From: a virus
Lineage: Duplodnaviria > Caudoviricetes
Virus record (IMG/VR): IMGVR_UViG_3300022178_003255
Coordinates: 1 to 45,128 of that record
DNA length: 45,128 nt
Strand: one strand, 5' to 3'
Every line of letters starts with the position of its first letter. Positions within the stretch are counted from its first letter, which is position 1. A program made the translations under genes and the position numbers. The notes below the pieces were generated by a model. It did not search any database, was not told where the DNA came from, and saw nothing but the letters and a program-made list of their open reading frames with translations. Shown piece by piece: positions 16,301 through 44,930 of the stretch.

Positions 16301-19300
16301 GTGTTAAACGAAAATATATCTAACAGTTCTTATACTTTAAGTTGGCACAATTGTTATTCTTTTGGTAATGGAGTTGAATCTAATAGAATTAGAGACTCTT
16401 TTAATCTACCTTATATAACTAGCGGTGTTAAAGCTTCAACAACACTAGAGGGAGAATACAAGGAAGAACATAGAAAATATGGTCTAATATATTCTGGTAT
16501 ATACAACTCTACGTCTGGTATTAATAATTTAAACCAATTTATACAGGCTGAAAAAATAACAAAAGACGTAAATCCAGTATACGGTAGCATACAAAAACTA
16601 CACACTAGAGATAGTAACTTAATAGCACTCTGTGAGGATAAGATATTAAAGATATTAGCTCACAAAGACGCTTTGTATAACGCCGATGGTAACCCTCAGT
16701 TAATAGCAACAGACAAAGTTCTTGGACAAACAACACCTTTTGTTGGTGAATACGGTATATCTACTAATCCAGAATCATTTGCATCGGAATCCTATAGGGC
16801 TTACTTTACAGATAAGGTTAGAGGATCCGTGATGAGATTGTCAAAAGATGGTTTAACATCAATATCTGATGCTGGTATGAAAGATTGGTTTAGAGATAAT
16901 TTAAAGTTAAGTAGCAAGTTAGTTGGTAGTTATGATGATCATAAAGGTGAGTACAATATCACTTTAAATCAAACGGCTGATCCAGACAACGCTAAGTCAG
17001 TAACATATAGAGAAGACGTGAGAGGTTGGGTTAGTTTTAAATCTTTTGTACCTGAAAACGGATTAAGCTGCGCTAACCAATACTACACGTTTAAGGAAGG
17101 TGATATATACCAACACCACCTTGAAAAAGACGTGTTCGACAACCCAGTTAATAGAAATACCTTCTATAATGTGCATGCTCCATCAAGTTTTAACGTTATA
17201 TTTAACGACCAACCAGGTGTTGTAAAATCGTTTAAAACGTTAAACTATGAGGGTAGTCAATCTAAAATAGATGAAAACTTACAAGACGGACAGTACTATA
17301 ATTTACAAGATAAAGAAGGTTGGTACGTTTCAAATATAGAAACTGATTTAGAAAAAGGTAGTTTAAATGAATTTATAAGAAAAGAAGGTAAGTGGTTTAA
17401 TTATATAAAGGGAAAAGAAGGAGTTGTAACAAATAGTGGTGTTGTTGTTGGTGGTTTTGACAATAGTGATACTTCTTTCCAAGGAATAGGTAGAGTAGAT
17501 GGAAATCCAACCGCAAGTATGGCGGGTGGATGTACAGATCCTACCGCGTTTAATTATAACCCATCGGCTGTTGTAGACGCTGGTAACTGCATATCTGCGG
17601 TTTTAGGGTGTACAGATTCGCAATCTGAAACCTATGACAGTACGGCTAATACAGATGATGGTTCATGTAATTATCCGGGATGTACGAATCCTAGTGCGTT
17701 TAATTATGATTCAAGCGCCAACAGTAACGACGGATCTTGCGTTGGTGTTATTAACGGCTGTACTGATAATAGCATGTTTAATTACGACGGGGCCGCAAAT
17801 ACAGATGATGGAAGCTGCATTGCGATTATAACTGGTTGTATTGATCCAACTGCTGACAATTATAACGATACGGCTAACACGGACGATGGTAACTGTATGT
17901 ATACTGTTTATGGGTGTATTGATGTAAACGCTTGTAATTATGATACCGCTGCTAACACGGATGATGGCTCTTGTGGGTATTGTGGTGATAGCGCTGCTGA
18001 TAATTATAGTGCTAATGTTGAAGATACTTGTACTAATGGTTGTGTGTACTGCGCTTTTAATGACAATTCACTTCAATCTTTAACGACTAGTAGTAATTCT
18101 ATTATTGTTAACGACTCGGCTACGTCTATAGATATAGCTTGGAGCAGTATCGCTGCTAATCCTGGAACTGCTCCTATTGTTAGTTACGACGTTAGATATA
18201 GTGTGTCAGGGCTAGACACTTGGACCGTGATAAACAACGTACCCAACAACACCAACATATGGTACCAAACTTACACGATACAAGGCTTAACGCATAGTAC
18301 TGCTTATGATATTCAAGTAAGAAAGATCTGTAATAACACGGCTTCTGGTTGGTCTCCTATTCTCACTTTGTCAACACAATTTGCGGAGATTTGGGGATGT
18401 ACAGATGCTACTGCTTGTAATTATGATCCTCTTGCAAATATGCCGGACATCTATAATGTTTTATGTAATTATACTTCTTGTGCTGGTTGTATGGATGCAA
18501 CAGCCTCTAATTATGATGCTACTGCAACTATAGACGATGGTAGTTGTATTCCTGTTGTGAACGGTTGCACGGATAACAGTGCCTTTAACTATGATGTTAA
18601 TGCAAATGCAGACGATGGTTCTTGTATTCCGTTTATATATGGGTGTACGGATGCAGATTCATGTAACTTTGACCCGACTGTGAATACGGATGATGGTTCT
18701 TGTATAGGTGCTTGTAGTAGTTTTATTGACTCTGTCAACATATCAGGTAATTTTGTTAATGACGTTACGCTTGGAGTTTATAATACCGAAGTAACTGTTG
18801 CTTGGGACACTTTAACCGACCCTGACGCATCTACAGGTCACAGAATAAAATACAAGAAAAGTAGTGACTCTGGTTGGGTTTTAGTAGCGGGTTTAAGTGC
18901 TGGGAGCGGTAGTACGGTTATAAGTGCTATTTTTGAAGAGAATGAAGACTACGACTTTAGGGTGAAAGCTATTTGCTCGGGAAGTGGGTGTAACGAAAGT
19001 TGGTCAAGCATAACAACTGTTAATATTGGCGCTTTTTATGGCTGTACTGATCCTAACGCAACTAACTATGTGAATGGCGCAACTACAGATGATAACTCTT
19101 GTTTGTATCTTACTGAAGGTTGTATGTACGGGCTCGCGGATAATTATGATCCTAACGCTAGTGCAAACAATTTAAGTTTATGTACATTTACCACAACAGC
19201 AGGTCCTGGATGCATGGATAGCACACAATTTAACTATGATCCTAACGCTACGTCTGACGATGGAGATTGCCAGCCGTTTACTTATGGATGTATAAATTCA

Positions 19301-19429
19301 ACTGCTTCTAACTACAATTCTACCGTGAACACTAGTGATGGTTCTTGTATTTGGTTAGGTTGTACTGATGCAACTGCAAACAACTATGACCCAACAGCTA
19401 CTACAGATGATGGTTCTTGTATGTATTAA
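10361..19429 (+). CDS. Large tail stabilization/nozzle-like protein (3022 aa) with C-terminal Cys-rich repeats and two FN3-like domains
   Basis: N-terminus FTGGKMNKDHDERLIKSGEYRDAMNI and internal FSYRYKYADGEYS, YQLGVVFIDKYGRETPV, GEYGISTNPESFA resemble crAss-related stabilization proteins; about 16 GCxD..A.NY...A..DDGSC repeats after ~17525. Confidence 0.7.
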   Translation: MPEIKHTFTGGKMNKDHDERLIKSGEYRDAMNIQVTTSEGSDVGTMQNVLGNAGVCTNLGCIPDNSYTVGSISDEKNDTLYWLVAGGAFSDLQQHLYDAYSNTYSASTAVGDVLYSKDLIMRKTPNGCEPVFVDIYGFALANSESVLGDGNAAEGVTNTLVIPIEYDNGKPLLSQIEVGMTVHGLDDTLTPNTSTANVISVGALKKIDTVYTPNTYTCQGAVLTPGGGVDFDGDYSGSGGFEIDYSVAGSAGTWAVGDAIPITGRLIVNASAFDQISNYLLSTYGAEQVPTPTTPQVGDRISVTNPAVGGTNIVVSHALITDIEDVNFGGSVGGDYKIITVDQPVSNWAGAASFSANGQGMINGEANAYNFDINLVADGNVTPMPPLDTMAFTSGTMLTVDRSGTCFRPYIDLPSNSPWLDEIYNVFFNNNTSYIQGSEIKIKVNPAWPDASGFGDGWAGCIDWETTYDAGSGFALNGPTTNRLHMAQCDDFSIEVTPTSTYNYLSLVASGDLGQDVVLLDKEIDLGTNTAYFNFQRDRVLNFRADRLITGINVIDDMLFWTDGHTEPKKINIQRSIDGTIPDGSAHTRVVTDVTTTTIPVMEEHITVIKQPPTHPLSMELSTGRKEEHTHTGVMMISTEGSQPSSSFIGGDGTSETTDHYDFSSMNVGDFFNVEIASDIYGGEEFTLRNVDGKPWGPNTKVVFKEFTEDSAPDIPVLQYTIKATVGGWSGNKMEATAGDPAKVSFRVDFIEGSVPSTDSVLKFAIDVFDESEKLFEFKFPRFSYRYKYADGEYSTFAPFTEVAFVPGGFSYHPKKGYNLGMTNRIKTVTIKDFVTPLTPSDVIAIDILYKDDQSPNIYVVDTVASNDETVNGHNEWQANEYIISSDIIHSILPANQLLRPWDNVPRKAVAQEITKNRLVYANYTQGYDLTVGGKNIKPQFKHSLVNNKNSIKSIKSLREYQLGVVFIDKYGRETPVITNRSGGFKISKSESSNKNQLKVGLSEMTIPSDMEYFKFFVKETSGEYYNMAMDRWYDADDGSVWLAFPSSDRNKIDEDTFLILKKGVESSSLVKEPAKYKIISIENQAPDFIKTTKYNIGDVQQDGGVGNDSLLYGASMDNAPKRGRNNFSCLASRFNGTSLSQVEEIKEELYVEFYIQGKPNVSHRYKINSASRDKMDDGTLGEDFNFTIDGFFGDDINFILNGTTTSPSSVLSTAKTRFYKGVLENAAKFDGKFFVKIYADEYFNKYIANPPVTDDDRVEYGGIDFKKIYYCSPDHHAVHDGDYGDGAIAFGNNNFIQDAFESVYDNMPSFAVAGNSLLNSSHRNNDLYFTILTRHLKLMSGMVWWQGGIPDPANSTKPAYQPGSVTANRAFFKNNLVSMWDYKGHSVNDEDGWFDYSIGQSDSYGLKLLWGLQNDLNARGIAEGDHGYEDVFFIDGGPIAGNNSGMNGALNHISYEGEDYNHGNPRTNFGIRNSGTYGEIDLGFGPIMPDKTYPNRGSGGWSWESVWGGDKKDILNWHHGDEKIFDLNRDGSRYEDAGKYLDRLASGKKFHWLEDPTKTIYTLSTATKRNNRTRITGEGDINTYAYSFRYEDWMTNDNNDFWSSRYADRNLIARIAHPHFYTGENFSKSNIGTFKPAMTNWEPTNYENGGVGPIPGGRTIQFHASLATALSATPTETIKSIANSWTNNSFKVSKQHINQAWDSNNGTTLDVDGDDIAGEFTSVVEGMILTHIGSSSITNITTNGEFIKTPLLIDSIVGSGDDYIINIVGYKNVRSTSSNAVGLYSLNSQGTGSDGVFDLTFRQPAMNGLSVNSIKNLNRESFSTEANWIGIGAVGYTLEFLEPVERETLLPKNPSVWETEPKESTDLDIYYEISGKNPVHLNKDTIKLAAPIGSTISVNNQIKTAIIPTVIGYTTVPNKTLVLEPPVCIGALSNCPEGAMPIDIGNDDVTITRPDGSEITARVEDFVEVAGTPGLANKIVLNENISNSSYTLSWHNCYSFGNGVESNRIRDSFNLPYITSGVKASTTLEGEYKEEHRKYGLIYSGIYNSTSGINNLNQFIQAEKITKDVNPVYGSIQKLHTRDSNLIALCEDKILKILAHKDALYNADGNPQLIATDKVLGQTTPFVGEYGISTNPESFASESYRAYFTDKVRGSVMRLSKDGLTSISDAGMKDWFRDNLKLSSKLVGSYDDHKGEYNITLNQTADPDNAKSVTYREDVRGWVSFKSFVPENGLSCANQYYTFKEGDIYQHHLEKDVFDNPVNRNTFYNVHAPSSFNVIFNDQPGVVKSFKTLNYEGSQSKIDENLQDGQYYNLQDKEGWYVSNIETDLEKGSLNEFIRKEGKWFNYIKGKEGVVTNSGVVVGGFDNSDTSFQGIGRVDGNPTASMAGGCTDPTAFNYNPSAVVDAGNCISAVLGCTDSQSETYDSTANTDDGSCNYPGCTNPSAFNYDSSANSNDGSCVGVINGCTDNSMFNYDGAANTDDGSCIAIITGCIDPTADNYNDTANTDDGNCMYTVYGCIDVNACNYDTAANTDDGSCGYCGDSAADNYSANVEDTCTNGCVYCAFNDNSLQSLTTSSNSIIVNDSATSIDIAWSSIAANPGTAPIVSYDVRYSVSGLDTWTVINNVPNNTNIWYQTYTIQGLTHSTAYDIQVRKICNNTASGWSPILTLSTQFAEIWGCTDATACNYDPLANMPDIYNVLCNYTSCAGCMDATASNYDATATIDDGSCIPVVNGCTDNSAFNYDVNANADDGSCIPFIYGCTDADSCNFDPTVNTDDGSCIGACSSFIDSVNISGNFVNDVTLGVYNTEVTVAWDTLTDPDASTGHRIKYKKSSDSGWVLVAGLSAGSGSTVISAIFEENEDYDFRVKAICSGSGCNESWSSITTVNIGAFYGCTDPNATNYVNGATTDDNSCLYLTEGCMYGLADNYDPNASANNLSLCTFTTTAGPGCMDSTQFNYDPNATSDDGDCQPFTYGCINSTASNYNSTVNTSDGSCIWLGCTDATANNYDPTATTDDGSCMY
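17527..19426 (+). repeat. Array of about 16 ~26-aa Cys-bracketed repeats (GC[TM]DxxAxNYDxxAxxDDGSC) interrupted by two FN3-like domains
   Basis: Counted in the translation: 7 repeats (one degenerate), FN3-like, 4 repeats, FN3-like, 5 repeats. Confidence 0.9.
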
Positions 19430-25089: not shown

Positions 25090-28000
25090 ATGACAAAGGC
25101 AGAAGTAATATTAAACGCTATTAATAGTGGCGCAACAGACGAGGAATTAGTGGTATTGGAAAATACTCCTGAAGAGCAATTTACTGTGGAGGTTAAAGAA
25201 GAAGAGGAAGTAGAAGAGGTTGAAGAAGAAACAACAGCTACCGAGGTAAAGGAAGACCCAACACCGGAGGGTACCACGGTGAAGGAAGAAAGTACGGTAT
25301 CCACTGGGGAAGAAAGTTCTACGGAATCACAAAAGTTTAGTGAGTTAGATAAGGAGAATGACAGGGCTCTTCGTCCAGATCGATACGATGTAAATGGAGA
25401 TCTTAAACCTGAGTTTGAGGTGTATACTGACTCTAAGGGAATAACTCACTCTAGGAAAGTAAGAGAAAAAACAGATACCTCTGTAGGTGAAAATGACTAC
25501 GTATTTAGAATCGACAAAACGAAAGACAAGGTCGGACAAGTTGTAGATATGTACAACACTGTAAATGAGAATGACGAAGAGGTGAAGGGTTTATTAAAAA
25601 GTAGACCTGACCCTAATATTCAAGACGTTATAGAGGAGGTGCAAAAAAGTCGGTATAAAGCTATAACAGATGGCATGAGTCAAGAGGAGCTTGATGACAT
25701 GCACCTTATGCTAAAGACTAAAAAGGGTTTGAATGTAACTACAACTGGGATATTTGCTTTACCAGAAGTAGTTGTTGAAGAAGATTTTATCACAACTGAG
25801 GTAACGAAAATAGATATAAAAAGAGGAAAACAAGTAAGAGCGTTATTAGCTGATATTGATTTTAACAATAAAGAGGTTAAAGAGATAATTGCTGAGGAAT
25901 ATTTTGATTTTAGTGGAATACCTCTGAGAAACACAGGTAAGCCTGAAGATATTATACATGACAACAGGCTACTCGCGAAAACAATACCGTTAGAAAAACA
26001 ACAGCAATTTAGGCGTTGGAAAGAAACAGGTGAATTACCAATGTACTCATCTGTAGACGGGTTTGGAATAAGTATGGATATGATAAACAATGCTGTTGCT
26101 TCGGTAAAGGATAAAACAGTGCAGACTTATTTCGAAGGACTTTCCATCAAAGAAAGATTTGACGTTATGAAACACATGCCCTCTGCTACTCCAGGGACTA
26201 CGTCTTTCGTTGATTACTATAAACAACGTAGAAAAGATGAGATAGATTTCAAAAAGAAATATGGGTATACGTTGTCACACAAGCAAAAAGGCCCAAGTAA
26301 TATGGACGATCGTATTTACACGCCAGTAAATGATTATGGAGCGGATTGGGCGAAGCATTTTTCAAAAGCAGTTAACGAATCGTCTAACGATTATATAAAA
26401 AAGACTTCAGATCGCGTAATAAAAGATAACAAAGACCTAGAACTTGAGAAAGAAAAATTCAACGCGCTTAATGGTGACTTCATGGCTAGGGCGAATAAAC
26501 TAAACAGAGAGTTAGAAGGTCTAGGCAGGGTAACTTCTGATTCTCCACCTGATGTTATTGATAATTACAATGCTATAATTGGGGAATTAAGGGTGTTAAA
26601 GCAAAACATTGCAGATCGTGGGCTAGGTGATATATATGCGGATATTAGTAGGCGCTCTGAAAAACTTAAAGCAGATATCGACGGTCTTACCGATGTAGCT
26701 GAAGTTAACGAGGATTTAAGTATTATTGCTTACGCAAGTGGACTTAATTATTCCAACATAGACAGAACGGTGGCAAGTATTGAAAAGGGATTGGTTAATC
26801 CAGTTAGCGTTGCGGGTTCAGATCTTATAGATTTTGTTTCGGCTGATACGTGGGATTTAGGAGGCAAGGCAAGACAACATAGTATAAAAACTGATGAGGA
26901 TTTTGAAGAAACTTTTTCTAGAAACTTAAGCTTTAGCTGGCAAAATTTAGATATTTGGTTACCACAAGCTTTAGCTAATAACTCAGCTAGTATAGCGGCT
27001 GTTGGTGGGTTTTTTGTAAACCCCGCTTTAGGGTACTCTTTATTTTTTGGAATGGGGTATGGTCATAAAGTTACAGATATAACCCGAAGTAGGCAAGCGG
27101 CAGACAAGCAAATCGAGGGTGTAAACCTTAAACTAAGTAAAGTAACAACGGAGGACGAGAGACTATCTCTTTTAAAACAAAAAGATGATTGGCAAAGAAA
27201 AAAAGATATAAGCTATTGGCAGGAGCGAACATCTGGTATATTAGCTGGAACTTCGGAGTTAGTTTGGGAAAGACTTGGTTCTGTTAACGCTATAAAGAAT
27301 TTCTCCAAATGGTCTAGGGTTGTCGGTAAAAGTGGGTTTAAGAGAGCTATGGGGGTAGGTTATGGTATTGGTCTCACACAGGTAATAGAGCTTGGGGAGG
27401 AGACCGGTACTGAAATCACCAACAACATCTCAGATATAGTGAACTTAAAAGAAGACAAGACGATTATTGATGGTATGAATAAAGATTTTTTTGCCAACGT
27501 AATAGTGACTGGTCTAGCGTTGCAAGGTAAAAATATAGGGCAAACAACTTGGAACTTATTCTCCGAACAAGTTAGAACAAGAGATCAGAAAAAAATAAAT
27601 GGAGATCGATTACAAAGAATTCATGAAATTGACGAGCAGTTGCAAAATCCACTTACGTTAAATTCTATCGAGGTAGAAAAGCTTGAAAACGAGAAAATGG
27701 ATCTTATAGAGCAGGCGGGTATAGAGACAGTCATGAACATCGACAATCTTAATAACTTAACGTTTGAGGAGAAGCAAGTAGTTTTTGAAAAAGCAAGGCA
27801 AGCCCAAGAGACGCTTAGAGAGCTAGAGGCTCTTGGTGCTACTGGTGATCTTACATCTAATTATGCTAAAAAGAATAAGAAATTCTTGATGGATAAGTAT
27901 AATGAGTTGGTTGGGGAAAAAGATCAGTTATTAGATAAGAACGGTAAAGAAATAAGAGAAAGAGCAAAAAACAGTAACAACCCCGCTGCCGCTGCTTACA

Positions 28001-31000
28001 ATGCTGGTTTTAATAATTTCGCAAACAATCTTGCTAGATATAATGCCAATAAAAACGGTAAGCAGTTTACGCAAATAAACGATATTAGTAATCTAAAGCA
28101 AAATGAAGAATTGTTTGATGATTATCAAGAAATATTAGAGGCTTATGAAGCTGGGGACTATGCTTTTCACTCTGAAAACGGTGATGTTTATGTTTTTCAA
28201 GAGAATGTAGATAATCAAATTTACGGAACCGTTGCTACAAATACTATCACTGGAGAAAAGGTTTATTCCGATAACAACACTTTGGAAGCTATGATAGCCG
28301 CTGTATCGCCACTGCACGAAAACCTACACGATAGAAACAGAACTGTTGGTATTATAAAAGATGGAAAGGTAGTAGAGTCAGCGGTTGAGGCTATAGAGGG
28401 TATAGAGGCTGAGATGCAATCTTTATTAGCTGCTAACAGAATAACTCAAGAGGTTTTTGATTTATTTAAAGCTAGAAAAGATTTATACACAGACGAAAAC
28501 TCTGGACAAGTTAACATGGAGGAGCTTATTAACCTCGTGGGTGATCTGCATTTTATAGGGGCTTTACCTATTAGTAGTTTTAATAACTTGTTTGGATTAA
28601 AGTCACTTCTTAACAATGCTGCTAGTTATTTCTTTGAGGAGTCAGCGCCTATGTTTAAGTTTAAAACAAAGGATATATTTGGTTACGTACAAAGTTTTTA
28701 CAAACAAAGTAAGTCTAGGAAGTTAAAATTATCTACGCGTGTTACTGATGATAAAAAAGCTATAAGTTTATCTAAAAGTACATACGATCAGTTTAGCCCT
28801 GAAGAATTAGTAGAAATCATTAAGGATCCACTTTACGATGACACGCAAACAATAGCCGCTGAAAACTCTTTAACAAAACAATTTGACTTATTAGCTTTAG
28901 ATGCTTTAAAATACGACACAAGAAAAGGTGATATTGCTAGAGAAGAGGTTATAGCAGCAGCAAGAGAATACTTACCGGGTATTATAAATAGATTTAATCC
29001 AGAAAGCGCCAAGTTTTCCACATTTGTAAATGGTAATATAGCGCCAAAACAAGCTGTAATATATGAAGAAGCAAAAAGCTTAAGCTTTGAAACAGTTAGC
29101 TTAGATGCTCCACAAGCACAGCAGTTAGCTGATGAGACTACCGAAGTAGAAAGTAATTTAACTGAAGACAAGATAACTAAAGTTAATGTCTTACAGGTTG
29201 GCAAAATAGCTAGTAAACAAAATGAGATTAGAAAGGCTACAAAAGTTAAAAAAGGAGATACACACAAGCAAATTACAGATAACAACAAGGGTAATATTGG
29301 GAGTGTAATATTTAATATTCCAGCAAATAAAATAGCTAATCCTAAAGACAACATAACAACTTCTAGTAAAATTGTAAACCCTCAAACTGGTAAACCAGTT
29401 AAAAAAGGAGAAACTGGTATACCTGAACGTTCTGAAGCTACAAATATTCAAGATCACTTTGCTGATATAAATACAGCTAAAAGTTTTATAAAAATACTAA
29501 ACCCGACCAACGTTAGTGAAAAAGATGCTGATATAAATAAAATAGGAGAAAACATACGAGTTTCAAGAAATGTTTATGGTAGAGCTATAGGTTTACCAAA
29601 TAGAATTTTAGAATATTTTTATGATCAAGCATTTAAACCCGATGGAAAAAGACTAAGATCACAGGGGTTAACATCGCAAGTTGGGATGTGGAAATTAAAA
29701 CCTAAGTTTAAAAATCTTAATGATACTGAGTTAACAAAAGTTGCAGAGCAATTTCAAAGAGATTTAGGTATTACAGAGCAACAAGAGGTTAATAAATTAC
29801 CTACAAAAGAAAATAGATCGGTGATAGGTCAGTTACTCAAAGGAGCGGCTGTGGTTGCTAGTATGCAAGTGTCATTATCCTCAGCTCAGAGAAGATTAGC
29901 AGCGTTTCCTACCTTGGCTCGTAGAGGAGCTAAAAAAGCAAAGGCCCAAGAAATAGCTGATGTAACAGCTGGTCAAAGTAAACTTGCTTTTAGTAAAACT
30001 GGTAAAACTAGTTTAGACAATGGTACTAAAAGGTTAAACAAAACTTTAAATAATTCTGACAATATTATAGAAGCTAGAGAAGAAGCTGGCAATATTGATC
30101 CGGAATTTATAGATAAAGAAAATAGAGATACCTTAAACAAAAATCTCGCATTCCATAAGTTGAAACCAATGCACGCTTATGATTCGGCTACGGATATTGA
30201 TTTTATTATTAAGGGGTTTAAAAGAATCTCCACGGTATTAAATCAAGAAACCGCTAACTACACTATTTTCTTTAAAAGCGATAGACATATACCGGCTAAC
30301 GTCAGAAACAACTTAATTGTTGATCCAAAAACCGGAGAACAAATAAAAGTTAGAGATTATTATAAACGAGAAATTAGAATAGCTTTTCCACCTAAAACAA
30401 CTTACGGAAAGAAATTTACCGGCCCAGCTTCAAAATATAGAAAAGGTAAGAAGTTTGGTAAACTTTATGGTCAAACAGCTGCGGATTTTAGAGCGGCAAT
30501 GAAAACCGGTAGAAATTACGAGGGATCAGGTGAAAACACTGTAAAACTAACTATTCCAGAGATAAATGAGATGCATGAAAGTATGGGTACTCAACTTTGG
30601 CAAAGAATAAATGATGATATAAATGGGCCAAATGGAAACAGAGAAAACGCTAGAATTTGGGCTAACTATCTCGACTTAGCGACAAACAATACCGAGCATC
30701 CACATAGGCAGTGGGCTGAGTTTATAGGTTGGACTAAAAAACCTCTTGGATCGAATCCAAAAGGAAACATTGATCCAAACTCGGAAGGATACAAGGTTTA
30801 TGAGTGGGAACACGCTATGCAATCCGCAAAGTCTATTAATTATTTAATGCATTCTATATTAGGTGATTACAATTTTGACGCTGCATTTGAGTTGATAAGA
30901 AGAAATTACAAGTTAATAGCGTTAGACAACTACGATGATAAGGTTAAATTAAAAGGAGCTAAAAGAACACACAGTATGGGTGACGGGTGGACAGTGTTAG

Positions 31001-34000
31001 ATGCTTTTCATAAAAGATATCAAGATGAGGTAGTTGCCGCTGTAAAAGGGAAAAACGGTAATGGTATAAACCCCGAGGGTATTGAAACCATTTTTGATGG
31101 TAAAACTATGGGTGAGCACTACAATATAAATACTGAAGGTCAACCTAGAGGAGTCAAGCCTAATATTGTAAAAAACAAAAAGCTTGATAAAGTAATAGTG
31201 TTTTCTAGAACAGTCAATCCCGCTAAAGGTATTACGGTTCTAGATTTTGACGATACACTAGCTACGACTAAGTCTGGCGTTAGAGCTAAGGTTCCAAATC
31301 CAGACGGAACACCAAAACCAGGAAGAAAAGTTATATTTTTAGCTGGTGGAGCTGGTAGTGGTAAAAGTAACGTTATTAGTAAGTTAGGTTTAAAAGATCA
31401 AGGATTTAAAATTGTTAACTCTGATATATCCTTAGAATGGCTTAAGGAAAACTCTGGATTACCAGCTAATATGAATGATTTTACTAAAGAACAAAGAAGT
31501 AAGTTAGGTTCTTTACAACATCAAGCCAGAGGTATTGCTAGAAGAAAACAAATGAAGTACCAAGGCGAGGGTAATGGGGTTGTTGTTGATGGTACTGGTG
31601 GTTCTATCAAGTCAATGGAAAAACTAGTTAACGAGTTTAAAGAGAAAGGATATGATGTTAGCATGATGTTTGTTGAAACATCGTTACCAGTAGCATTAGA
31701 AAGAAATGCAGCTAGAAAAGAAAGATCTTTATTGGATAAGATTGTTACAAAAAACCACGAAGCAGTTCAAGGTAACAAAGATGGTTTTAAAACTATGTTT
31801 GGTGATAGATTTATGGAGGTTAATACTGACAATCTAAGCCAACAAGATGCAATGCCTACTAAACTTACAGAGCAAATGAACGACTTTGTTAGCGGTTATG
31901 AGAACAGACGATTAGATGCTGAGGAGTTTGCTAACGAAGGGGCTGATATACTAGATCAAGGTGGAACGTTTGATTTCTCAGAATTTAACAAGGTAGTCGA
32001 AGGTCAGACAGCACCATTGTTTAACAAAGCAATGAAACTACAAGGCAAGTTTGGTAACAAAGATATGTTTGTGTTAACGGCTAGACCAGCTGAGTCTGCG
32101 CCGGCTATATTTGAATTCTTACAAGCTAATGGTTTAAACATACCTTTAGAAAACATTACTGGTTTAGCTAACTCTACATCAGAGGCTAAAGCTCTCTGGA
32201 TGGCTGAAAAAGTTGGCGATGGTTATAACGACTTTTACTTTGCTGATGACGCTTTACAGAATGTACAAGCTGTACAAAATATGTTAGATCAATTCGATGT
32301 TAAGTCTAAGGTTCAACAGGCTAAAATACAATTTAGCAAAAATATTAGCCCTACGTTTAATGATATACTAGAGTCAACAACTGGTGTTGAATCTCAAAAA
32401 GAGTTTTCTGATGCTCAAGCGAGGTTAAGAGGTAGAAACACTAAGTACAAAGGTATAATACCAGCGTCCGCTCAGGATTTCCAAGGGTTATTATACAACT
32501 TTTTAGGAAAAGGTAAAAAAGGAGAGGCTGATATGGCATTTTTCAAGGAAGCCTTAATAGATCCATTTGCTAGAGGTATTAAAGAGTTAAATACGTCAAG
32601 ACAATCAGCCGCGAATGACTTTGAGAATCTAAATAAGAATTTCCCTGATGTTAAGAGAAAGCTTAACAAAAATATAGAAGGTTTAGATTATACAAATGAT
32701 CAAGCGATTAGGGTTTATCTTTGGAATAAAGCTGGGTTTGAAGTTCCAGGTTTATCAAAAAGAGATTTAGCGGCTTTAACTAGCGTTGTGCAAAATAATC
32801 CTGAAATACAAGCTTATGCTGATGCTATAGGTTTAATTTCTAAAAAAGATGATGGTTATTCACAACCTAAAGACTATTGGTTAGCCGAAAGCATTGCTTC
32901 TGATTTGTTAAGTGATGGTGCCATTGGAGATGTTAGAGCTAAGTTTTTAGGTGAATGGCAGCAAAATGTAGATCAAATGTTTTCTAAAGAAAACTTAAAC
33001 AAGATCGAATCTATATATGGTAGTAAATTTAGAGAGGCCTTAGAAGATTCTTTATACAGAATGAGAACTGGTAAAAACAGACCAATGGGTGGTGGTAGGC
33101 TTATGAATGGTTATATGAATTGGGTTAATAACTCTGTTGGTGCTATTATGTTTTTTAACATGAGATCAGCTATACTACAAACTATATCTGCTACTAATTA
33201 TATGAACTGGAGCTTTAATAATCCAGCTAAAGCAGCCGCAGCGTTTGCCAATCAACCACAATATTGGAAGGATTTTAGTATGATATTTAATTCTCCTTAT
33301 TTAAAACAAAGAAGATCTGGTAACCAAAGGGGTATTAACGAAGCCGAACTTTCAGAAGCGGTTGCTGGTAGTGAAAACAAAGCTAAAACAGCTATTGCTT
33401 GGTTACTTAAAAAAGGTTTTTTACCAACACAACTTGCGGATAGTTTTGCTATTGCGTCTGGTGGAGCTAGTTTTTACAGAAACAAAGTTAAAGCTTTGAT
33501 AAAAGAAGGTATGACCCAAGAACAGGCTGAGGCTCAAGCTTTTATAGATTTTCAAGAGGTAACAGAAGTTTCTCAGCAGTCAGCACGACCTGATATGATA
33601 TCACAACAACAAGCTTCGCCTCTTGGTAGGTTAATATTATCGTTTCAAAACACTCCAATGCAGTATGCTAGAATAATAAACAAAGCAGCTAGAGACTTAG
33701 CTAACGGTAGAGGTGATTATAAAACTCACATGTCTAAAATCGCGTATTATGGTGTAGCTCAAGGTATATTGTTTGGATCTCTTCAATCTGCTTTGTTTGC
33801 GGCTTTAGGTGAGGATGAGGAAGAGGAGTATGATAAAAAGAAAGAAAGAATAATAAACGGTATGATTGACTCTTTATTATCTGGTATTGGTTATGGTGGT
33901 AAAGCAATAAGTACTGCTAAAAATACAATAAGAGAGTACGCTAAGCAAAAAGACAAAGGTTGGAACGCTGATCACACATATACTATATTGCAGTTGTTAG

Positions 34001-34632
34001 GTTTTTCTCCACCTATAGGATCTAAGTTACGTAAAATATATGGTTCAATACAAACAGAGCAATTTAATCAAGGTGTGTTTGAAAAAAGAGGCTTAACTTT
34101 AGATAATCCTATTTGGTCTGCCGTTGGTAATGTTGTTGAGGGCGTTACAAATGTACCTTTAGGTAGATTAGCTCAGAAAATGCTTAATATAGATAATGCT
34201 CTTGATGATAATAATAAGTGGTGGGAAAGAGCGGCTTTACTTTTAGGTTGGAATACTTGGGATTTAGGTATCAGAGATAAAGATATTGAAGCTGTTAAAG
34301 ACGAGGTAAAAGAAGAAAAGAAAATAGAGTCTAAGAAGAGAGCTAAGATTAAGAAAGAGAAAAAGAAAAAAGAAAAAGAAGAGGAAAATAAAGCTGTTAT
34401 TGAAGACAATAAAAAGAAAAGTAAAAAAGATGGAGTTTGTTCTGCTGTAAGTAAAAGTGGGAAAAGATGTAAGACTAAGGTTGTTGAGGGTAAGTTGTTT
34501 TGTACAGTTCACGAGAAGGCAGAGCAAAATCAAACCGGAGAAAAATCACAGTGTAAGAAGGTTAAGAAAGGCAACAAAAGATGTAAGATGCAAACATCTT
34601 CAAAGAGTGGTTACTGCTACTACCACGATTAA
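25090..34632 (+). CDS. Giant polyvalent (probably virion-ejected) protein, 3180 aa
   Basis: HENLH zincin motif (~28315); sigma-70 region 2/3-like segment (~28940-29112); HAD motifs DFDDT/LTAR/K/ADD with an inserted GGAGSGKS P-loop kinase; helical C-terminal region; two terminal CCCH motifs. Confidence 0.75.
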   Translation: MTKAEVILNAINSGATDEELVVLENTPEEQFTVEVKEEEEVEEVEEETTATEVKEDPTPEGTTVKEESTVSTGEESSTESQKFSELDKENDRALRPDRYDVNGDLKPEFEVYTDSKGITHSRKVREKTDTSVGENDYVFRIDKTKDKVGQVVDMYNTVNENDEEVKGLLKSRPDPNIQDVIEEVQKSRYKAITDGMSQEELDDMHLMLKTKKGLNVTTTGIFALPEVVVEEDFITTEVTKIDIKRGKQVRALLADIDFNNKEVKEIIAEEYFDFSGIPLRNTGKPEDIIHDNRLLAKTIPLEKQQQFRRWKETGELPMYSSVDGFGISMDMINNAVASVKDKTVQTYFEGLSIKERFDVMKHMPSATPGTTSFVDYYKQRRKDEIDFKKKYGYTLSHKQKGPSNMDDRIYTPVNDYGADWAKHFSKAVNESSNDYIKKTSDRVIKDNKDLELEKEKFNALNGDFMARANKLNRELEGLGRVTSDSPPDVIDNYNAIIGELRVLKQNIADRGLGDIYADISRRSEKLKADIDGLTDVAEVNEDLSIIAYASGLNYSNIDRTVASIEKGLVNPVSVAGSDLIDFVSADTWDLGGKARQHSIKTDEDFEETFSRNLSFSWQNLDIWLPQALANNSASIAAVGGFFVNPALGYSLFFGMGYGHKVTDITRSRQAADKQIEGVNLKLSKVTTEDERLSLLKQKDDWQRKKDISYWQERTSGILAGTSELVWERLGSVNAIKNFSKWSRVVGKSGFKRAMGVGYGIGLTQVIELGEETGTEITNNISDIVNLKEDKTIIDGMNKDFFANVIVTGLALQGKNIGQTTWNLFSEQVRTRDQKKINGDRLQRIHEIDEQLQNPLTLNSIEVEKLENEKMDLIEQAGIETVMNIDNLNNLTFEEKQVVFEKARQAQETLRELEALGATGDLTSNYAKKNKKFLMDKYNELVGEKDQLLDKNGKEIRERAKNSNNPAAAAYNAGFNNFANNLARYNANKNGKQFTQINDISNLKQNEELFDDYQEILEAYEAGDYAFHSENGDVYVFQENVDNQIYGTVATNTITGEKVYSDNNTLEAMIAAVSPLHENLHDRNRTVGIIKDGKVVESAVEAIEGIEAEMQSLLAANRITQEVFDLFKARKDLYTDENSGQVNMEELINLVGDLHFIGALPISSFNNLFGLKSLLNNAASYFFEESAPMFKFKTKDIFGYVQSFYKQSKSRKLKLSTRVTDDKKAISLSKSTYDQFSPEELVEIIKDPLYDDTQTIAAENSLTKQFDLLALDALKYDTRKGDIAREEVIAAAREYLPGIINRFNPESAKFSTFVNGNIAPKQAVIYEEAKSLSFETVSLDAPQAQQLADETTEVESNLTEDKITKVNVLQVGKIASKQNEIRKATKVKKGDTHKQITDNNKGNIGSVIFNIPANKIANPKDNITTSSKIVNPQTGKPVKKGETGIPERSEATNIQDHFADINTAKSFIKILNPTNVSEKDADINKIGENIRVSRNVYGRAIGLPNRILEYFYDQAFKPDGKRLRSQGLTSQVGMWKLKPKFKNLNDTELTKVAEQFQRDLGITEQQEVNKLPTKENRSVIGQLLKGAAVVASMQVSLSSAQRRLAAFPTLARRGAKKAKAQEIADVTAGQSKLAFSKTGKTSLDNGTKRLNKTLNNSDNIIEAREEAGNIDPEFIDKENRDTLNKNLAFHKLKPMHAYDSATDIDFIIKGFKRISTVLNQETANYTIFFKSDRHIPANVRNNLIVDPKTGEQIKVRDYYKREIRIAFPPKTTYGKKFTGPASKYRKGKKFGKLYGQTAADFRAAMKTGRNYEGSGENTVKLTIPEINEMHESMGTQLWQRINDDINGPNGNRENARIWANYLDLATNNTEHPHRQWAEFIGWTKKPLGSNPKGNIDPNSEGYKVYEWEHAMQSAKSINYLMHSILGDYNFDAAFELIRRNYKLIALDNYDDKVKLKGAKRTHSMGDGWTVLDAFHKRYQDEVVAAVKGKNGNGINPEGIETIFDGKTMGEHYNINTEGQPRGVKPNIVKNKKLDKVIVFSRTVNPAKGITVLDFDDTLATTKSGVRAKVPNPDGTPKPGRKVIFLAGGAGSGKSNVISKLGLKDQGFKIVNSDISLEWLKENSGLPANMNDFTKEQRSKLGSLQHQARGIARRKQMKYQGEGNGVVVDGTGGSIKSMEKLVNEFKEKGYDVSMMFVETSLPVALERNAARKERSLLDKIVTKNHEAVQGNKDGFKTMFGDRFMEVNTDNLSQQDAMPTKLTEQMNDFVSGYENRRLDAEEFANEGADILDQGGTFDFSEFNKVVEGQTAPLFNKAMKLQGKFGNKDMFVLTARPAESAPAIFEFLQANGLNIPLENITGLANSTSEAKALWMAEKVGDGYNDFYFADDALQNVQAVQNMLDQFDVKSKVQQAKIQFSKNISPTFNDILESTTGVESQKEFSDAQARLRGRNTKYKGIIPASAQDFQGLLYNFLGKGKKGEADMAFFKEALIDPFARGIKELNTSRQSAANDFENLNKNFPDVKRKLNKNIEGLDYTNDQAIRVYLWNKAGFEVPGLSKRDLAALTSVVQNNPEIQAYADAIGLISKKDDGYSQPKDYWLAESIASDLLSDGAIGDVRAKFLGEWQQNVDQMFSKENLNKIESIYGSKFREALEDSLYRMRTGKNRPMGGGRLMNGYMNWVNNSVGAIMFFNMRSAILQTISATNYMNWSFNNPAKAAAAFANQPQYWKDFSMIFNSPYLKQRRSGNQRGINEAELSEAVAGSENKAKTAIAWLLKKGFLPTQLADSFAIASGGASFYRNKVKALIKEGMTQEQAEAQAFIDFQEVTEVSQQSARPDMISQQQASPLGRLILSFQNTPMQYARIINKAARDLANGRGDYKTHMSKIAYYGVAQGILFGSLQSALFAALGEDEEEEYDKKKERIINGMIDSLLSGIGYGGKAISTAKNTIREYAKQKDKGWNADHTYTILQLLGFSPPIGSKLRKIYGSIQTEQFNQGVFEKRGLTLDNPIWSAVGNVVEGVTNVPLGRLAQKMLNIDNALDDNNKWWERAALLLGWNTWDLGIRDKDIEAVKDEVKEEKKIESKKRAKIKKEKKKKEKEEENKAVIEDNKKKSKKDGVCSAVSKSGKRCKTKVVEGKLFCTVHEKAEQNQTGEKSQCKKVKKGNKRCKMQTSSKSGYCYYHD

Positions 34633-41268: not shown

Positions 41269-43143
41269 TTATAAGCTTGATATTTCACAAGAACCACCGG
41301 CGCAAGCTAATTCACCTGATAGATCTGTTTCGTCAGTTGTTTCAACAATCATAGATAAATCTACATCGTTTAAGAGTTTGACTCTCTTATTAAACTCATC
41401 TTCGGTTATATCCTCAAACGGAGCTTGAGTATATGTTCCACCGTCGTAAGGTAGAACTGATAAACCGTTATAACACTCTCTGTTATCCCACATCCATTTT
41501 CCAGCTTTATCCCATTCATCTTCTTTTAAACTAATTGTTGCAGACACGTTGTGAGTGTTAGATCCTTTTCTGTGACCTGGTTTCACCCATTCGGTAGCAA
41601 CTTTTTTAACTCTCTTGAGTAAGTCAAAAGCAGACTCAGTTCTCATTATAGAACCTTTCGGTGCTGATTGTGGTATTTCGATAACAGCGGTATCGTGTGG
41701 TCTAAAGTATTCGTCTTGTACTAGGTCAGGATTGTGAGCCAATAAGTACTTGTAAATCGGCTCATTTTTCCCTACACGCAGTCTACGGATGTAGAAATCA
41801 TTATGCCAAGCATGAATACCAGATGATGTTCCAAGTACCAGAGATGTCGTCCCTGCAGGCTTCACACACGTTGTACGCGCAGCCTTGTTTATTCCTATAA
41901 GTTTTGCAACTCTAGAATTTTCACGTTTAACTACATCAGCGGCTTTAGCCATATCCATCTTCAAGACTTTCTTAGACGCAATACCTGTCATTGACACGCC
42001 AACTAAAGCATCCTTTTCAGTTGTCTCTTGCCATATTTCTCTTAGATAGTGGAATTCCGTATAACCTGCTTGTAGCGTACCTATGAAAGATGCGGCCTTA
42101 ACTCTATCGTTAAGATCTTCCTGGCTCGTGACGTCACTTACATTAACTTCGCACAAGTTACAAAACTGATATGGCCTTAACGCAATTTCACAACATGGAT
42201 TAGTTCCCCAATCTTTATCGTGATTAAAGTATATGCCAGGCTCACCAGCTCCGGATAATTCAATACGTTTCCACAAATCTAAGAAAAATTCTTTAGTTAT
42301 TTTATGTCTCATTAATACAGCTGAATTGTTGGCTCTTCCTCGTTGAGGGTTTGATTCCCACCAATCACCTGATTTACTTGAGATCATTTCTTCATCGTAC
42401 GCCGAGAACAACGATATTAATGCAGCACGGCGAATACCACCAGCAAGCACAGCGTCAGCAATGTGACACACAATATCGTGAACTTCAAGTGTTGATAATT
42501 TTCTCCCATCTTCTTTGTTTTCTAATATTCCTTTAATTTTTACTAAACATTCTTTTAATGGTTGTGGCCCTGGAGCTTTTCCTCCTGAGGTCACAAGTCT
42601 TGCGCCCTTTGGTCTAATATCAGAATAATCAAACTTTATCTTAGATGATCTCTTAGAGCCTAAATAAGACTTAATTAAAACCTTTATCGCGTCTGACCAA
42701 CCTTCAATACTATCACCAATAACAAATCTGCGCGTTCTACCTTGAAATGGTTTTGTTATTTCAGGGAGTACGTTGACATGGTGTTTTTGAACTGAGTAAC
42801 CAACTCCGCAACCAGAGAGTAGCAGAAACATACATTCACTAAAGCAATCAACGTGATCAATAGGTAAGTAAGAACAATTGTATAACCTGTTAGGACTGAT
42901 TTCAATCGGCTTACCGCTAAACTGAAGGCTTCGCATACTTGGTAAAACTTTTTTCTCATAAACATATTGATAATTTAATTGTATTTGATCTGCTAGCTCA
43001 GGGTATCTTTTCTGATGCATCTCTTTATTCCTCGTGACTAGTTCCTCCCAAGTTTCCCTTCTGTTTAACTCGGGTATAAACTTAGCATACTTCATGTGGA
43101 CTGTAAGATCCGAAAGTATCTTTTTGTTTAAATCATTAGGCAT
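41269..43143 (-). CDS. nrdJ: Class II (adenosylcobalamin-dependent) ribonucleotide reductase, monomeric RTPR-like
   Basis: RRETWEE, NCSY, GGIRRAALI, TNPCCEI, CNLCEVN, TCVKPAGTTS, C-terminal CAGGSC; no beta subunit adjacent. Confidence 0.9.
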   Translation of the reverse strand: MPNDLNKKILSDLTVHMKYAKFIPELNRRETWEELVTRNKEMHQKRYPELADQIQLNYQYVYEKKVLPSMRSLQFSGKPIEISPNRLYNCSYLPIDHVDCFSECMFLLLSGCGVGYSVQKHHVNVLPEITKPFQGRTRRFVIGDSIEGWSDAIKVLIKSYLGSKRSSKIKFDYSDIRPKGARLVTSGGKAPGPQPLKECLVKIKGILENKEDGRKLSTLEVHDIVCHIADAVLAGGIRRAALISLFSAYDEEMISSKSGDWWESNPQRGRANNSAVLMRHKITKEFFLDLWKRIELSGAGEPGIYFNHDKDWGTNPCCEIALRPYQFCNLCEVNVSDVTSQEDLNDRVKAASFIGTLQAGYTEFHYLREIWQETTEKDALVGVSMTGIASKKVLKMDMAKAADVVKRENSRVAKLIGINKAARTTCVKPAGTTSLVLGTSSGIHAWHNDFYIRRLRVGKNEPIYKYLLAHNPDLVQDEYFRPHDTAVIEIPQSAPKGSIMRTESAFDLLKRVKKVATEWVKPGHRKGSNTHNVSATISLKEDEWDKAGKWMWDNRECYNGLSVLPYDGGTYTQAPFEDITEDEFNKRVKLLNDVDLSMIVETTDETDLSGELACAGGSCEISSL

Positions 43144-43273
43144 TGTGCGTTGTCAGGCAAACGTCTACAAAAGGTATGTACAACACGTGATTATTTTTAT
43201 TTACTTCATTATAGGTTCTAAAACCTAAACATATTCCCGGGTAAAACCCGAAACTTAATTCCCATTTCTTCAT
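43136..43273 (-). CDS. 45-aa hypothetical protein (not in the ORF track)
   Basis: MKKWELSFGFYPGICLGFRTYNEVNKNNHVLYIPFVDVCLTTHNA*; ATGA overlap with the upstream nuclease and 8-nt overlap with the nrdJ start. Confidence 0.7.
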   Translation of the reverse strand: MKKWELSFGFYPGICLGFRTYNEVNKNNHVLYIPFVDVCLTTHNA

Positions 43274-43725
43274 TTTTGTTTTCTTTTTGTTAATATTAAT
43301 TCTACTACTTTATCACATTCCTTTTGGTTCTGAGGTTTATATAAAGTTACATGTGGATGTTGCTCTTTTACTAATTGTTTGAACATTTTCCATCTCATAG
43401 GGAAACTTTCGTTAGCCCTACCTTTTGTCTCTATAATAAACTCATTCATGTCTATAAAATCAGGTGTGTATCTTATTGGTTGTATTTTCTTACAACCTCT
43501 ATTTACCATATCACCCTTACCATTTGACTGACGTTCGTACGATTCATTTTCAAAGTTAAATCCTTCTTGCAAAACAAATGTATGACCTTCGTACTCAGAC
43601 TTTATCTTAGCTTTTTTCAAAGCTATATACATGTATTTCTCTAAACCAGAGGCAAATGTGATCCCGTCAAAAGTAACTTTTTTACTTCTGACAGGACCTT
43701 TCTTTCTACTATATTTCTTTCTCAC
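43270..43725 (-). CDS. PD-(D/E)xK endonuclease, T7 endonuclease I/DUF1064-like
   Basis: DGITFASGLE ... YTPDF ... IIETKG. Confidence 0.8.
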   Translation of the reverse strand: MRKKYSRKKGPVRSKKVTFDGITFASGLEKYMYIALKKAKIKSEYEGHTFVLQEGFNFENESYERQSNGKGDMVNRGCKKIQPIRYTPDFIDMNEFIIETKGRANESFPMRWKMFKQLVKEQHPHVTLYKPQNQKECDKVVELILTKRKQK

Positions 43726-43981
43726 GGTCTTCTAGCTCTTCACGTGCGGCTTGTATGTATAGCACAGCATCCATTAATTCCTCTTGTATATCGTTAAGAT
43801 ATCCAGCTAGGTTTTTAAACTTACCTCTACGTTCGTCATCTAATGTTCTACCGTATTTTTCATAACCAATATCTGATCTTGATACAAACTTAGTAACTAC
43901 GTGTTTAACAACTGGATCTCTAAAACCAATTGTCTTACGTTCTATGCCATTTCTAGCATCCATAATCTCTCTACTACTCAT
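43709..43981 (-). CDS. Small MazG-fold/all-alpha NTP pyrophosphatase-like protein
   Basis: RSDIGYEKYG ... IQEELMDAVLYI acidic helix motif. Confidence 0.65.
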   Translation of the reverse strand: MSSREIMDARNGIERKTIGFRDPVVKHVVTKFVSRSDIGYEKYGRTLDDERRGKFKNLAGYLNDIQEELMDAVLYIQAAREELEDREKEI

Positions 43982-43982
43982 A

Positions 43983-44930
43983 TTAATCTTTTTTATAAGT
44001 TCCGTTAACCATTTTACCTTTTCTGTTTTTGATCTCTTGATATGCAGCGTCTATGCAGGCTTCAATTGATACACCTTGTAGTTCAGCTAGATTAGTAAGT
44101 ACAACTACACAATCGCCAATACCGTCAATAACTTCATCAAAGTCTTCTTTTAGTATAGCTCTACAAGTCTCGCCAACTTCTTCAACTAGTTTTAATGCTT
44201 GTGTTTTTGTATCACCATTTTCATACAAACCTCTCTCATCAGCCCAAGCTCTAATCAAATCAAATTGAGATGGCTCAAGATGTTTATTTATTCTTTTTGA
44301 GAACTGTGGCTCACAAGTGCAAGGGTTATATTCATCACAGCATTCAACCGGCATATCGTAATCCTCTGGATTGCGATCGTGGTACTCTTTCATTCCAGTT
44401 GGAGATAAACCACCAGCTAATGTTTTACCATTGTATTGATCTCTTCCATTTGAAGGATAGTCGTGTGTTTGGTGGTTGTCATAAAACCTAGCAAACGCTT
44501 TGTTATATACGTATGACCTTTGCTTGTTAAACATAGATGTTTTTACATTAGACATTATCCATTTAATTGAGTATTCATTGATAAAAAATACACCGTGATC
44601 TGTCTCCCACGTCATACCTATATTATCCATTAGTTGCCCTTTCAGTTTGTTAACTGGACAGGGAAACGTTGTTGTTTGTTCTGTTACGTTTATCTTCATA
44701 TTTAATTTATTTTTATTACAATTTAATTTATTGTATGGTATTTGGTCTACTTTGTAACCGAAAGCTTTTTGCATTATTATCTCGCCTTCAGAAATAAAAT
44801 CTATATCATCAGATGATTCGATTATCTCGTATTCGCCAGGACCATAACCCTGTTGATCTTCTACTCTACGTTTAAGGTCTGTTGTTACGCCAACCTTTTT
44901 GCCTGGTATGTGATATAAATAGTATGTCAT
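43983..44930 (-). CDS. MazG-like nucleotide pyrophosphohydrolase fused to an N-terminal GIY-YIG-like segment
   Basis: C-terminus WADERGL..QALKLVEEVGE..DGIGDCVVVL..AYQEIKNRKGKMVNGTYKK; N-terminus YYLYHIPGKKVGVTTDLKRRV. Confidence 0.8.
   Translation of the reverse strand: MTYYLYHIPGKKVGVTTDLKRRVEDQQGYGPGEYEIIESSDDIDFISEGEIIMQKAFGYKVDQIPYNKLNCNKNKLNMKINVTEQTTTFPCPVNKLKGQLMDNIGMTWETDHGVFFINEYSIKWIMSNVKTSMFNKQRSYVYNKAFARFYDNHQTHDYPSNGRDQYNGKTLAGGLSPTGMKEYHDRNPEDYDMPVECCDEYNPCTCEPQFSKRINKHLEPSQFDLIRAWADERGLYENGDTKTQALKLVEEVGETCRAILKEDFDEVIDGIGDCVVVLTNLAELQGVSIEACIDAAYQEIKNRKGKMVNGTYKKD

Follow-up and report, generated by a model that had tools for sequence, protein, structure and literature searches.

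Introduction

The closest described counterparts of the locus reported here are T4 Pnkp/PseT (1ltq, 1ly1, 5uj0) and the kinase of Clostridium thermocellum Pnkp (CthPnkp; 4gp6), with which it shares the pairing of a P-loop kinase and a DxDxT phosphatase of the HAD type. The locus lies in a virus of the Caudoviricetes (IMG/VR record IMGVR_UViG_3300022178_003255), whose 45,128 bases are called the window below, and encodes a kinase nested inside a HAD domain. A general-base Asp, a DxT motif and lid arginines are common to the locus and to these two enzymes, which are also the top fold matches of its two parts. It departs from them in being nested rather than in tandem, in lacking the Asp-x-x-Arg motif, in having a capped HAD and a kinase that is optional, and in being embedded in a giant protein of the virion module with no linked RNA ligase seen. 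Pnkp-type and Swiss-army-knife HADs are described in the text of Iyer 2021 and 2022 as tandem or stand-alone domains.

Domain insertion at this position of a HAD has a precedent in P-type ATPases, in which a whole nucleotide-binding domain is inserted after motif I, as outlined in PMC8069645. Their insert, however, is not a P-loop kinase; it is an obligatory part and supplies the HAD aspartate with ATP. For a P-loop kinase in that place, or any kinase nested in a HAD, no paper was found in the literature searched, which mostly excluded subscription journals. The giant protein itself resembles the polyvalent proteins of Iyer et al. 2017 (PMC5512222), which are very large and modular and carry HExxH motifs and swappable enzymes, ART-PolyVal-like and zeta-like modules included: it joins a HAD, a kinase, a sigma-like domain and an HExxH motif, the type of combination by which polyvalent proteins are recognised. 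In word searches, the main text of that paper yielded no HAD phosphatase or inserted-domain architecture, which its external architecture lists may contain.

A P-loop kinase lies inside a HAD phosphatase

The motifs that had led an initial annotation of the window to propose a zeta-toxin-like kinase inserted in a HAD phosphatase all share one frame of the open reading frame (ORF) at 25090-34632, and the order HAD-kinase-HAD was borne out (Table 1). Motif I had been placed at about 31237; it is present, but the strand before it begins at this position, and DFDDT (D2052-F-D2054-D-T2056) is encoded at 31243-31257. HAD motifs I to IV (DxDxT, S/T, K, DD) were all found and are invariant or nearly so across alignments. 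On the kinase side, the P-loop GxxGxGK and the general-base Asp are present, with K2092 and D2112 invariant; the catalytic residues are in this way conserved among homologues, as anticipated. The insert passes the Pfam cut-offs of AAA_33 (expect value, E, 4e-11) and Zeta_toxin (E 2.9e-9).

Homologues carrying the HAD and no insert, which the annotation proposed to look for, exist: the same HAD lacks the insert in 62 of 80 IMG/VR loci and has it in the other 18. Spacing from motif I to motif IV was compared in 201 giant ORFs, a set biased by the queries, and was 331 residues in 129, 332 in 1 and 132 in 62, with 9 unparsed, so that the insertion is a clean 199-residue difference (331 versus 132). 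Five pairwise comparisons indicated purifying selection, the ratio of non-synonymous to synonymous substitution rates (dN/dS) being 0.10-0.19 for the kinase and 0.05-0.21 for the C-terminal half of the HAD. Chance or an assembly artefact is ruled out as the source of the nesting by this purifying selection and by the constant spacing in many homologues. One nested copy (P0031, L004:10001-11077) has a whole kinase and a HAD without 11 residues around motif IV, which may reflect decay or an assembly error.

An AlphaFold model of the nested unit had a predicted local distance difference test score (pLDDT) of 85.9 and a predicted template modelling score (pTM) of 0.71. Its HAD part aligned to the T4 Pnkp phosphatase (5uj0) over model residues 1..368 (Z 13.2, root-mean-square deviation 2.4, 125 residues aligned), that is, across both flanks of the insert, which are predicted to form one HAD Rossmann fold. 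An empty HAD, modelled with a pLDDT of 90.1, has a P-D-G turn between strands 19-22 and 28-31; their counterparts in the nested model, 18-24 and 225-231, border the kinase. In each model, about 45 additional residues that follow motif I build a small alpha+beta cap. The proposed insertion in the C1 region after motif I was upheld with one refinement: judging from the secondary-structure strings of the models, the kinase would occupy a hairpin turn within a small native cap, which is kept intact and not replaced.

The phosphatase is the core and the kinase an optional passenger

A separate set of 80 loci was picked via the C-terminal core of the giant protein, blind to the HAD, 77 of which had enough upstream DNA to be informative. 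The HAD was carried by 76 of the 77, with no kinase in view in 70, a nested kinase in 5 and a kinase elsewhere in 1; the remaining locus had no HAD. A profile of the C-terminal half of the HAD, blind to the insert, retrieved 1,550 representatives at E<=0.001, and classification of the best 150 (6 rows by eye) gave 126 empty HADs, 22 nested, 1 with an ART-like domain and 1 with a 46-residue insert. The HAD is abundant, with about 1,200 IMG/VR stretches containing its pattern and 804 representatives at E<=1e-30. Among 27 whole records, all 13 that had been selected for the kinase contained it, and the 14 empty-HAD genomes had no copy.

The kinase state was placed on a HAD tree thinned to 192 of 480 rows, in which P0004 was labelled after correction of its insert class. 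There were 12 changes of state, 6 of them forced by starred branches, counts that are rough because the tree rests on 124 columns and a quick method. A single kinase-bearing clade was rejected (p-AU 4e-7, 39 rows). By this tree the kinase was gained or lost repeatedly, gain and loss not being separable on it. One ancient insertion followed by clean vertical descent, which was considered as a candidate, is ruled out by the same tree.

The kinase was also found outside the HAD. Three loci (L293, L294, L423) have it and no HAD, two (L298, L301) have it upstream of the HAD, L428 has it in tandem directly after the HAD, and P0040 has a second copy. The HAD-less L293 retains the linker of the nested form, and in a kinase tree (72 of 185 rows) it branches, like the upstream kinases of L298 and L301, from within the nested copies. 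That tree sets the giant-protein copies on one side and four free T4-like kinases on the other, with a support of 94 and long branches.

Other inserts use the same hairpin turn. An ART-PolyVal-like domain occupies it at L126:2575-2990, L144:2599-2995 and L250:2090-2500, with Pfam E of 0.0009-0.054, below the cut-off, and Atlas values of 0.93-0.94. These inserts span two HAD lineages, and the HADs that contain two of them are 98% and 94% identical to empty ones. Their first-strand His position is Asn, and their activity is uncertain. Short inserts of no known family, of +67 and +46 residues, were also seen in this hairpin (L162:2713-3411; proteins P0385 and P0155). We conclude that the HAD is the core and the kinase an optional, swappable passenger, and that, as these sequences suggest, the cap-hairpin loop serves as an exchange slot. 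The locus illustrates how, in many abundant aquatic phages, a complete enzyme domain has naturally entered and left one loop of another enzyme.

These distributions bear on another suggestion of the initial annotation, a nucleotide-signal kinase/phosphatase switch. In a coupled switch of this kind, kinase and phosphatase would act oppositely on the same small molecule, and nesting would allow one to regulate or feed the other, as the inserted domain does in P-type ATPases. The nested state has been long retained, free relatives of the kinase repeatedly lie beside or are fused to another HAD (NT5C), and P-type ATPases, with a whole domain at the equivalent position, occur among the fold matches of the HAD. 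An obligate switch is nevertheless disfavoured because most relatives have the HAD alone and some have the kinase alone or displaced. Unrelated ART-like and short inserts use the same loop, and the copy that misses 11 motif IV residues keeps its kinase, although it may be an assembly error. We regard such a coupled switch as improbable, and retain from the suggestion a nucleotide-directed role, which fits best.

Comparison with end-healing enzymes

The HAD is given no name by Pfam, in which DUF2608 comes near the cut-off. Its profile had no true match in the PDB, phmmer of the module had no match there, and NCBIfam and PADLOC returned nothing above cut-off. By fold, the empty homologue aligned to 5uj0 over 122 of 166 residues, and ranks 1-3 were the T4 Pnkp and Pnkp1 phosphatases (Z 12.2, 11.5 and 11.4), the next HAD being at 11.0. 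According to PMC8069645, capped HADs tend toward small metabolites and capless ones toward macromolecules, PNKP being classed as a capless C0 HAD. The T4 Pnkp 3'-phosphatase is of this capless C0 type, with an open active site, whereas the phage HAD has a small cap in its models, and it may be a nucleotidase-like enzyme.

Kinase motifs were counted in 185 distinct giant-protein copies, 184 of which could be parsed at the Asp site and 180 at the position of zeta Arg120. The Asp-x-x-Arg motif is common to bacterial and phage RNA-repair Pnks, in which its Arg is essential (PMC3902929, PMC2831316). It occurred in 0 of the 184 copies, the residue at Asp+3 being L in 175, I in 6, F in 2 and Y in 1, and Asp+4 was E in 182; free relatives of the kinase have F-E at Asp+3/+4 in 119 of 120. 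Shikimate kinase likewise has a hydrophobic residue at Asp+3 and not the Arg that anchors the phosphate, and chloramphenicol phosphotransferase has an Asp-x-x-Ile-Glu that resembles the kinase motif. The Walker A Ser/Thr is Ser in the window protein and Gly in 93 of 185 copies. A lid of the form R-x3-R-x1,2-R was found in 185 of 185 copies, and R-N-x-x-R-x-x-R aligns to CthPnkp and T4 Pnk.

The initial annotation had put forward a Pnkp-like end-healing activity. Delivered with the virion, the HAD would strip 3'-phosphates and the optional kinase would add 5'-phosphates to broken tRNA or DNA nicks, for a ligase to join. The folds supported this suggestion: the top matches of the HAD are the Pnkp phosphatases just named, and the kinase ties with CthPnkp and can be aligned with Pnk enzymes at its lid and DxT motifs. 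All 480 parsed HADs read T-A-R at motif II (T-[AG]-R was a requirement of the parser), and a 3'-phosphatase could be useful by itself, which fits the empty majority. Mammalian PNKP, moreover, is without Asp-x-x-Arg and yet heals DNA ends. The residues did not support it, Asp-x-x-Arg being absent throughout and the position of Ser16, essential in T4, being the Walker A residue that is Gly in half of the copies. The HAD has a cap that T4 Pnkp does not have, and its Z margin over generic HADs is about 1. Nor was an RNA ligase consistently present. PF09414 (RNA_ligase), a family that also matches in E. coli, was found in 3 of the 27 genomes, 2 of 13 with the kinase and 1 of 14 without, only 1 being over the cut-off, and these matches show no relation to kinase presence. 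PF09511 was found in 0 of 27, its controls being likewise silent, and no RNA ligase was seen among 23 ORFs scanned in the window, which may be incomplete. We hold end healing to be a serious candidate, though an unlikely one.

Comparison with zeta toxins and other P-loop kinases

Databases label such proteins zeta toxin or UDP-GlcNAc kinase (UDP-GlcNAc, uridine diphosphate N-acetylglucosamine). A UDP-sugar kinase weakening cell-wall synthesis, as in zeta and PezT (1gvn, 2p5t), was among the first suggestions for this locus, and zeta-like kinases with this proposed action are reported in polyvalent proteins in the main text of Iyer 2017 (PMC5512222). The Pfam Zeta_toxin match is above cut-off and zeta is the top profile match (E 5e-7), by a small margin over T4 Pnk (2e-6); zeta, T4 Pnk, PezT, CthPnkp and PSTK are not separated by their profile scores (E 5e-7 to 2e-5), and the N-terminal kinase profile against the PDB is dominated by AAA proteins. 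Contacts of zeta with UDP-GlcNAc are made by Asp67, Thr118, Arg120, Thr128 and Glu100 (PMC3062530). The positions of Asp67 and Thr118 are retained as D2112 and T2169, the HMMER register being off by one residue at the Asp, and free relatives have Arg at the Arg120 position in 117 of 120 members of a redundant set. In the giant proteins, however, the Arg120 position is G, A or N in 180 of 180 copies, and in the window protein those of Thr128 and Glu100 read L and R, an assignment made by sequence alignment only. The zeta profile alignment ends before the lid, which is of another kind.

Fold scores placed zeta (Z 11.7) and PezT (10.9) below CthPnkp and an uncharacterised kinase (both 14.6), PSTK (13.8), Kti12 (12.7) and T4 Pnk (12.3); NadR-type kinases were not among the top 50 matches. 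No antitoxin-like partner was noticed, though no dedicated search was made, and PADLOC returned nothing of relevance for the module. A UDP-GlcNAc kinase is in our view very improbable, and the names in the databases mismatch the residue test just as end healing does.

The scores of PSTK and Kti12 would also suit a kinase acting on another macromolecule, such as aminoacyl-tRNA or a host protein, or a nucleotide-binding sensor without transfer, and Walker A Gly variants in half of the copies point the same way. Against this, the cassette showed no C-terminal domain for tRNA binding, and the invariant catalytic Asp and lid arginines argue for phosphoryl transfer. Such a role is quite improbable. 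The kinase appears from motifs and models to have a Pnk-class hydroxyl-kinase build and to be a member of neither the Pnk nor the zeta family. It lacks residues characteristic of RNA-repair kinases and of cell-wall toxins alike, so its acceptor is likely a small nucleotide-like molecule.

Proposed role

We tentatively favour, at somewhat less than even chances, an independently acting and likely injected small-nucleotide kinase, lodged in a tolerant loop of a nucleotidase-like HAD. The giant protein would be injected with the DNA at infection and possibly cut at F-S-K/R. Working on its own, early in infection, the kinase would phosphorylate a hydroxyl of a free nucleotide or of a molecule derived from nicotinamide adenine dinucleotide (NAD), and so might blunt a nucleotide-based host defence or reshape nucleotide pools. 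Nesting would mean that a slot tolerant of insertions was used again and spread by recombination, and would not make an obligate two-enzyme machine. Should the target be a defence signal, this would be a new virion-delivered counter-defence chemistry. The question of the substrate is directly testable, since the unit is compact (370 residues) and occurs in nature empty, with the kinase and with an ART-like domain.

Several observations weigh against an independent small-nucleotide kinase. The top fold matches of both parts are the halves of Pnkp, the kinase reaching the same Z of 14.6 as CthPnkp, and no solved small-nucleotide kinase exceeds the other folds. Walker A Gly in so many copies could mean decay and not an adenylate-kinase-like variant. 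The nested state was found in 176 of 185 sampled giant-protein kinases, a query-biased sample, across lineages only about 40% alike, and its prevalence may mean that the pairing is useful. In addition, nucleotide-enzyme neighbours were found in just 3 of 24 scanned non-nested loci, and many free copies simply lie after the baseplate gene gp53.

Free-standing relatives of the kinase

Free T4-like kinases, all annotated as hypothetical (HTVC008M gp129, Melnitz _118 and Atu_ph07 gp053; PHROG 2071/12810), are 25-36% identical to the nested kinase and have the same N-x-D-x-x-hydrophobic-E and lid motifs. They are stand-alone or fused to other domains, and most keep Arg or Lys at the zeta Arg120 position. 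Directly before the domain, L/I-x-E was found in 30 of 30 distinct free T4-like segments, against a mean of 9.4 and a maximum of 16 in 500 shuffles. This is the motif of the T4 prohead (head) protease (PMC9026906). Short L/I-x-E leaders like those of T4 internal head proteins were seen at the start of these kinases (L096:2185-10136, L435-L466). Since free copies carry L/I-x-E, virion delivery may be common to both phage groups. A broader proposal, speculative and distinctly unlikely at present, is that N-x-D-x-x-hydrophobic-E marks an uncharacterised kinase family which two unrelated groups of tailed phages would package in the virion, T4-like phages as small head proteins and flavobacterial-type podophages as a phosphatase plug-in. 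In the opening minutes of infection the kinase would phosphorylate, and so disarm, an immune signal that is a nucleotide or derives from NAD, and the HAD hairpin would be a natural exchange slot for counter-defence enzymes.

Neighbours were scanned as 105 ORFs from 24 of 42 non-nested kinase loci. A kinase fused to Nudix lies next to two ART-PolyVal genes (L445), another is fused to an NT5C-like HAD, below the cut-off (L436), and a third has NT5C and HD neighbours (L463); no RNA ligase family occurred among these ORFs. NT5C adjoins the free kinase of Melnitz, a HIGH nucleotidyltransferase and NT5C are near that of HTVC008M, and NT5C was found in 29% of the 85 members of an Atlas cluster of similar proteins; one fold match lies in a protein named Acb1. 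HTVC008M gp127 (DUF6267; L096:3236-4468), two genes from the kinase, has by eye a K-x-D-G like that of nucleotidyltransferase ligases; were it a ligase, a repair role would be favoured for the T4-like copies. Two copies of the kinase family are adjacent or fused in one protein at L418, L422, L429, L434 and L438.

The giant protein and its genome

The gene order of the window is terminase, portal, capsid-like, tail genes, a 634-residue gene and the 3,180-residue ORF, whose features are collected in Table 1.

Table 1. Coordinates of the giant protein, the nested module and associated motifs in the window
Feature	Position	Strand	Basis
Giant polyvalent-type protein, 3,180 residues	25090..34632	+	ORF; end of virion module; virion-gene neighbours
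HExxH metallopeptidase-like motif, HENLH	28315..28329	+	motif
Sigma-factor-like domain	28783..29124	+	23-homologue profile versus RNA polymerase sigma factor chain 8x6g_H, E 6.6e-5
FSR junction-like motif directly before HAD module	31201..31209	+	motif; cleavage putative
HAD N-terminal piece: strand 1, motif I DFDDT (31243-31257), first cap-hairpin strand	31225..31296	+	motifs, model
Inserted cassette, net +199 residues, in hairpin turn that is P-D-G in empty relatives	31297..31902	+	alignment, spacing, models
P-loop kinase core	31327..31893	+	Pfam, fold, conservation
Walker A of kinase core, G2086-S2093	31345-31368	+	motif
Kinase N-x-D-x-x-L-E	31417-31437	+	motif; D2112 at 31423
Kinase D-G-T, D2167-G-T2169	31588-31596	+	motif
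Kinase lid, Arg 2205/2209/2212	31702-31725	+	motif
HAD C-terminal piece: second hairpin strand, cap helix, FDFSEF, motifs II-IV	31903..32334	+	alignments
HAD motif II, T2330-A-R2332	32077-32085	+	motif
HAD motif III, K2367	32188	+	motif
HAD motif IV, D2386/D2387	32245-32250	+	motif
FSK junction-like motif directly after HAD module	32332..32340	+	motif; cleavage putative

Of 87 terminase matches among cultured and deposited phages, 68 were to Flavobacterium and 15 to Cellulophaga phages, the listed Elemovirus records having about 45% terminase identity to the window virus. The source is, as we infer, a marine-type or flavobacterial-type podophage. In Flavobacterium phage elemoA (Elemovirus), the 3,694-residue gp21, annotated 'structural protein', occupies the position equivalent to the giant ORF. 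Host and virion location are inferred, since this counterpart shares only marginal sequence similarity with the giant protein; gene position suggests that the protein is probably ejected with the DNA. No HAD or P-loop motif was found in the syntenic giant proteins of elemoA and MW202828, and none of the cultured phages of the collection has this HAD.

An HExxH motif precedes the HAD in 211 of the 221 giant proteins that could be parsed, a count made with no background control, and could mark a self-processing peptidase. The sigma-factor-like domain, which has no support from Pfam, could start early transcription if injected. Directly after the HAD, [FLYA]S[KR] was found in 144 of the 221, against 3 of 221 in a control window, and the protein may perhaps be cleaved at its F-S-K/R junctions. 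A third F-S-K/R motif was seen at a module border at 29989-29997.

The giant protein also has an EWEH motif, HNH-like by eye (30802-30813), and C-terminal Cys/His repeats (about 34400-34629) with a weak DUF5763 match. A second giant ORF, of 3,022 residues (10361-19429), has crAss muzzle C-terminal and fibronectin III domains and is about twice as long as its syntenic counterpart in elemoA. On the minus strand, 41269-44930 encodes a B12-dependent ribonucleotide reductase, an endonuclease/resolvase and MazG-like genes.

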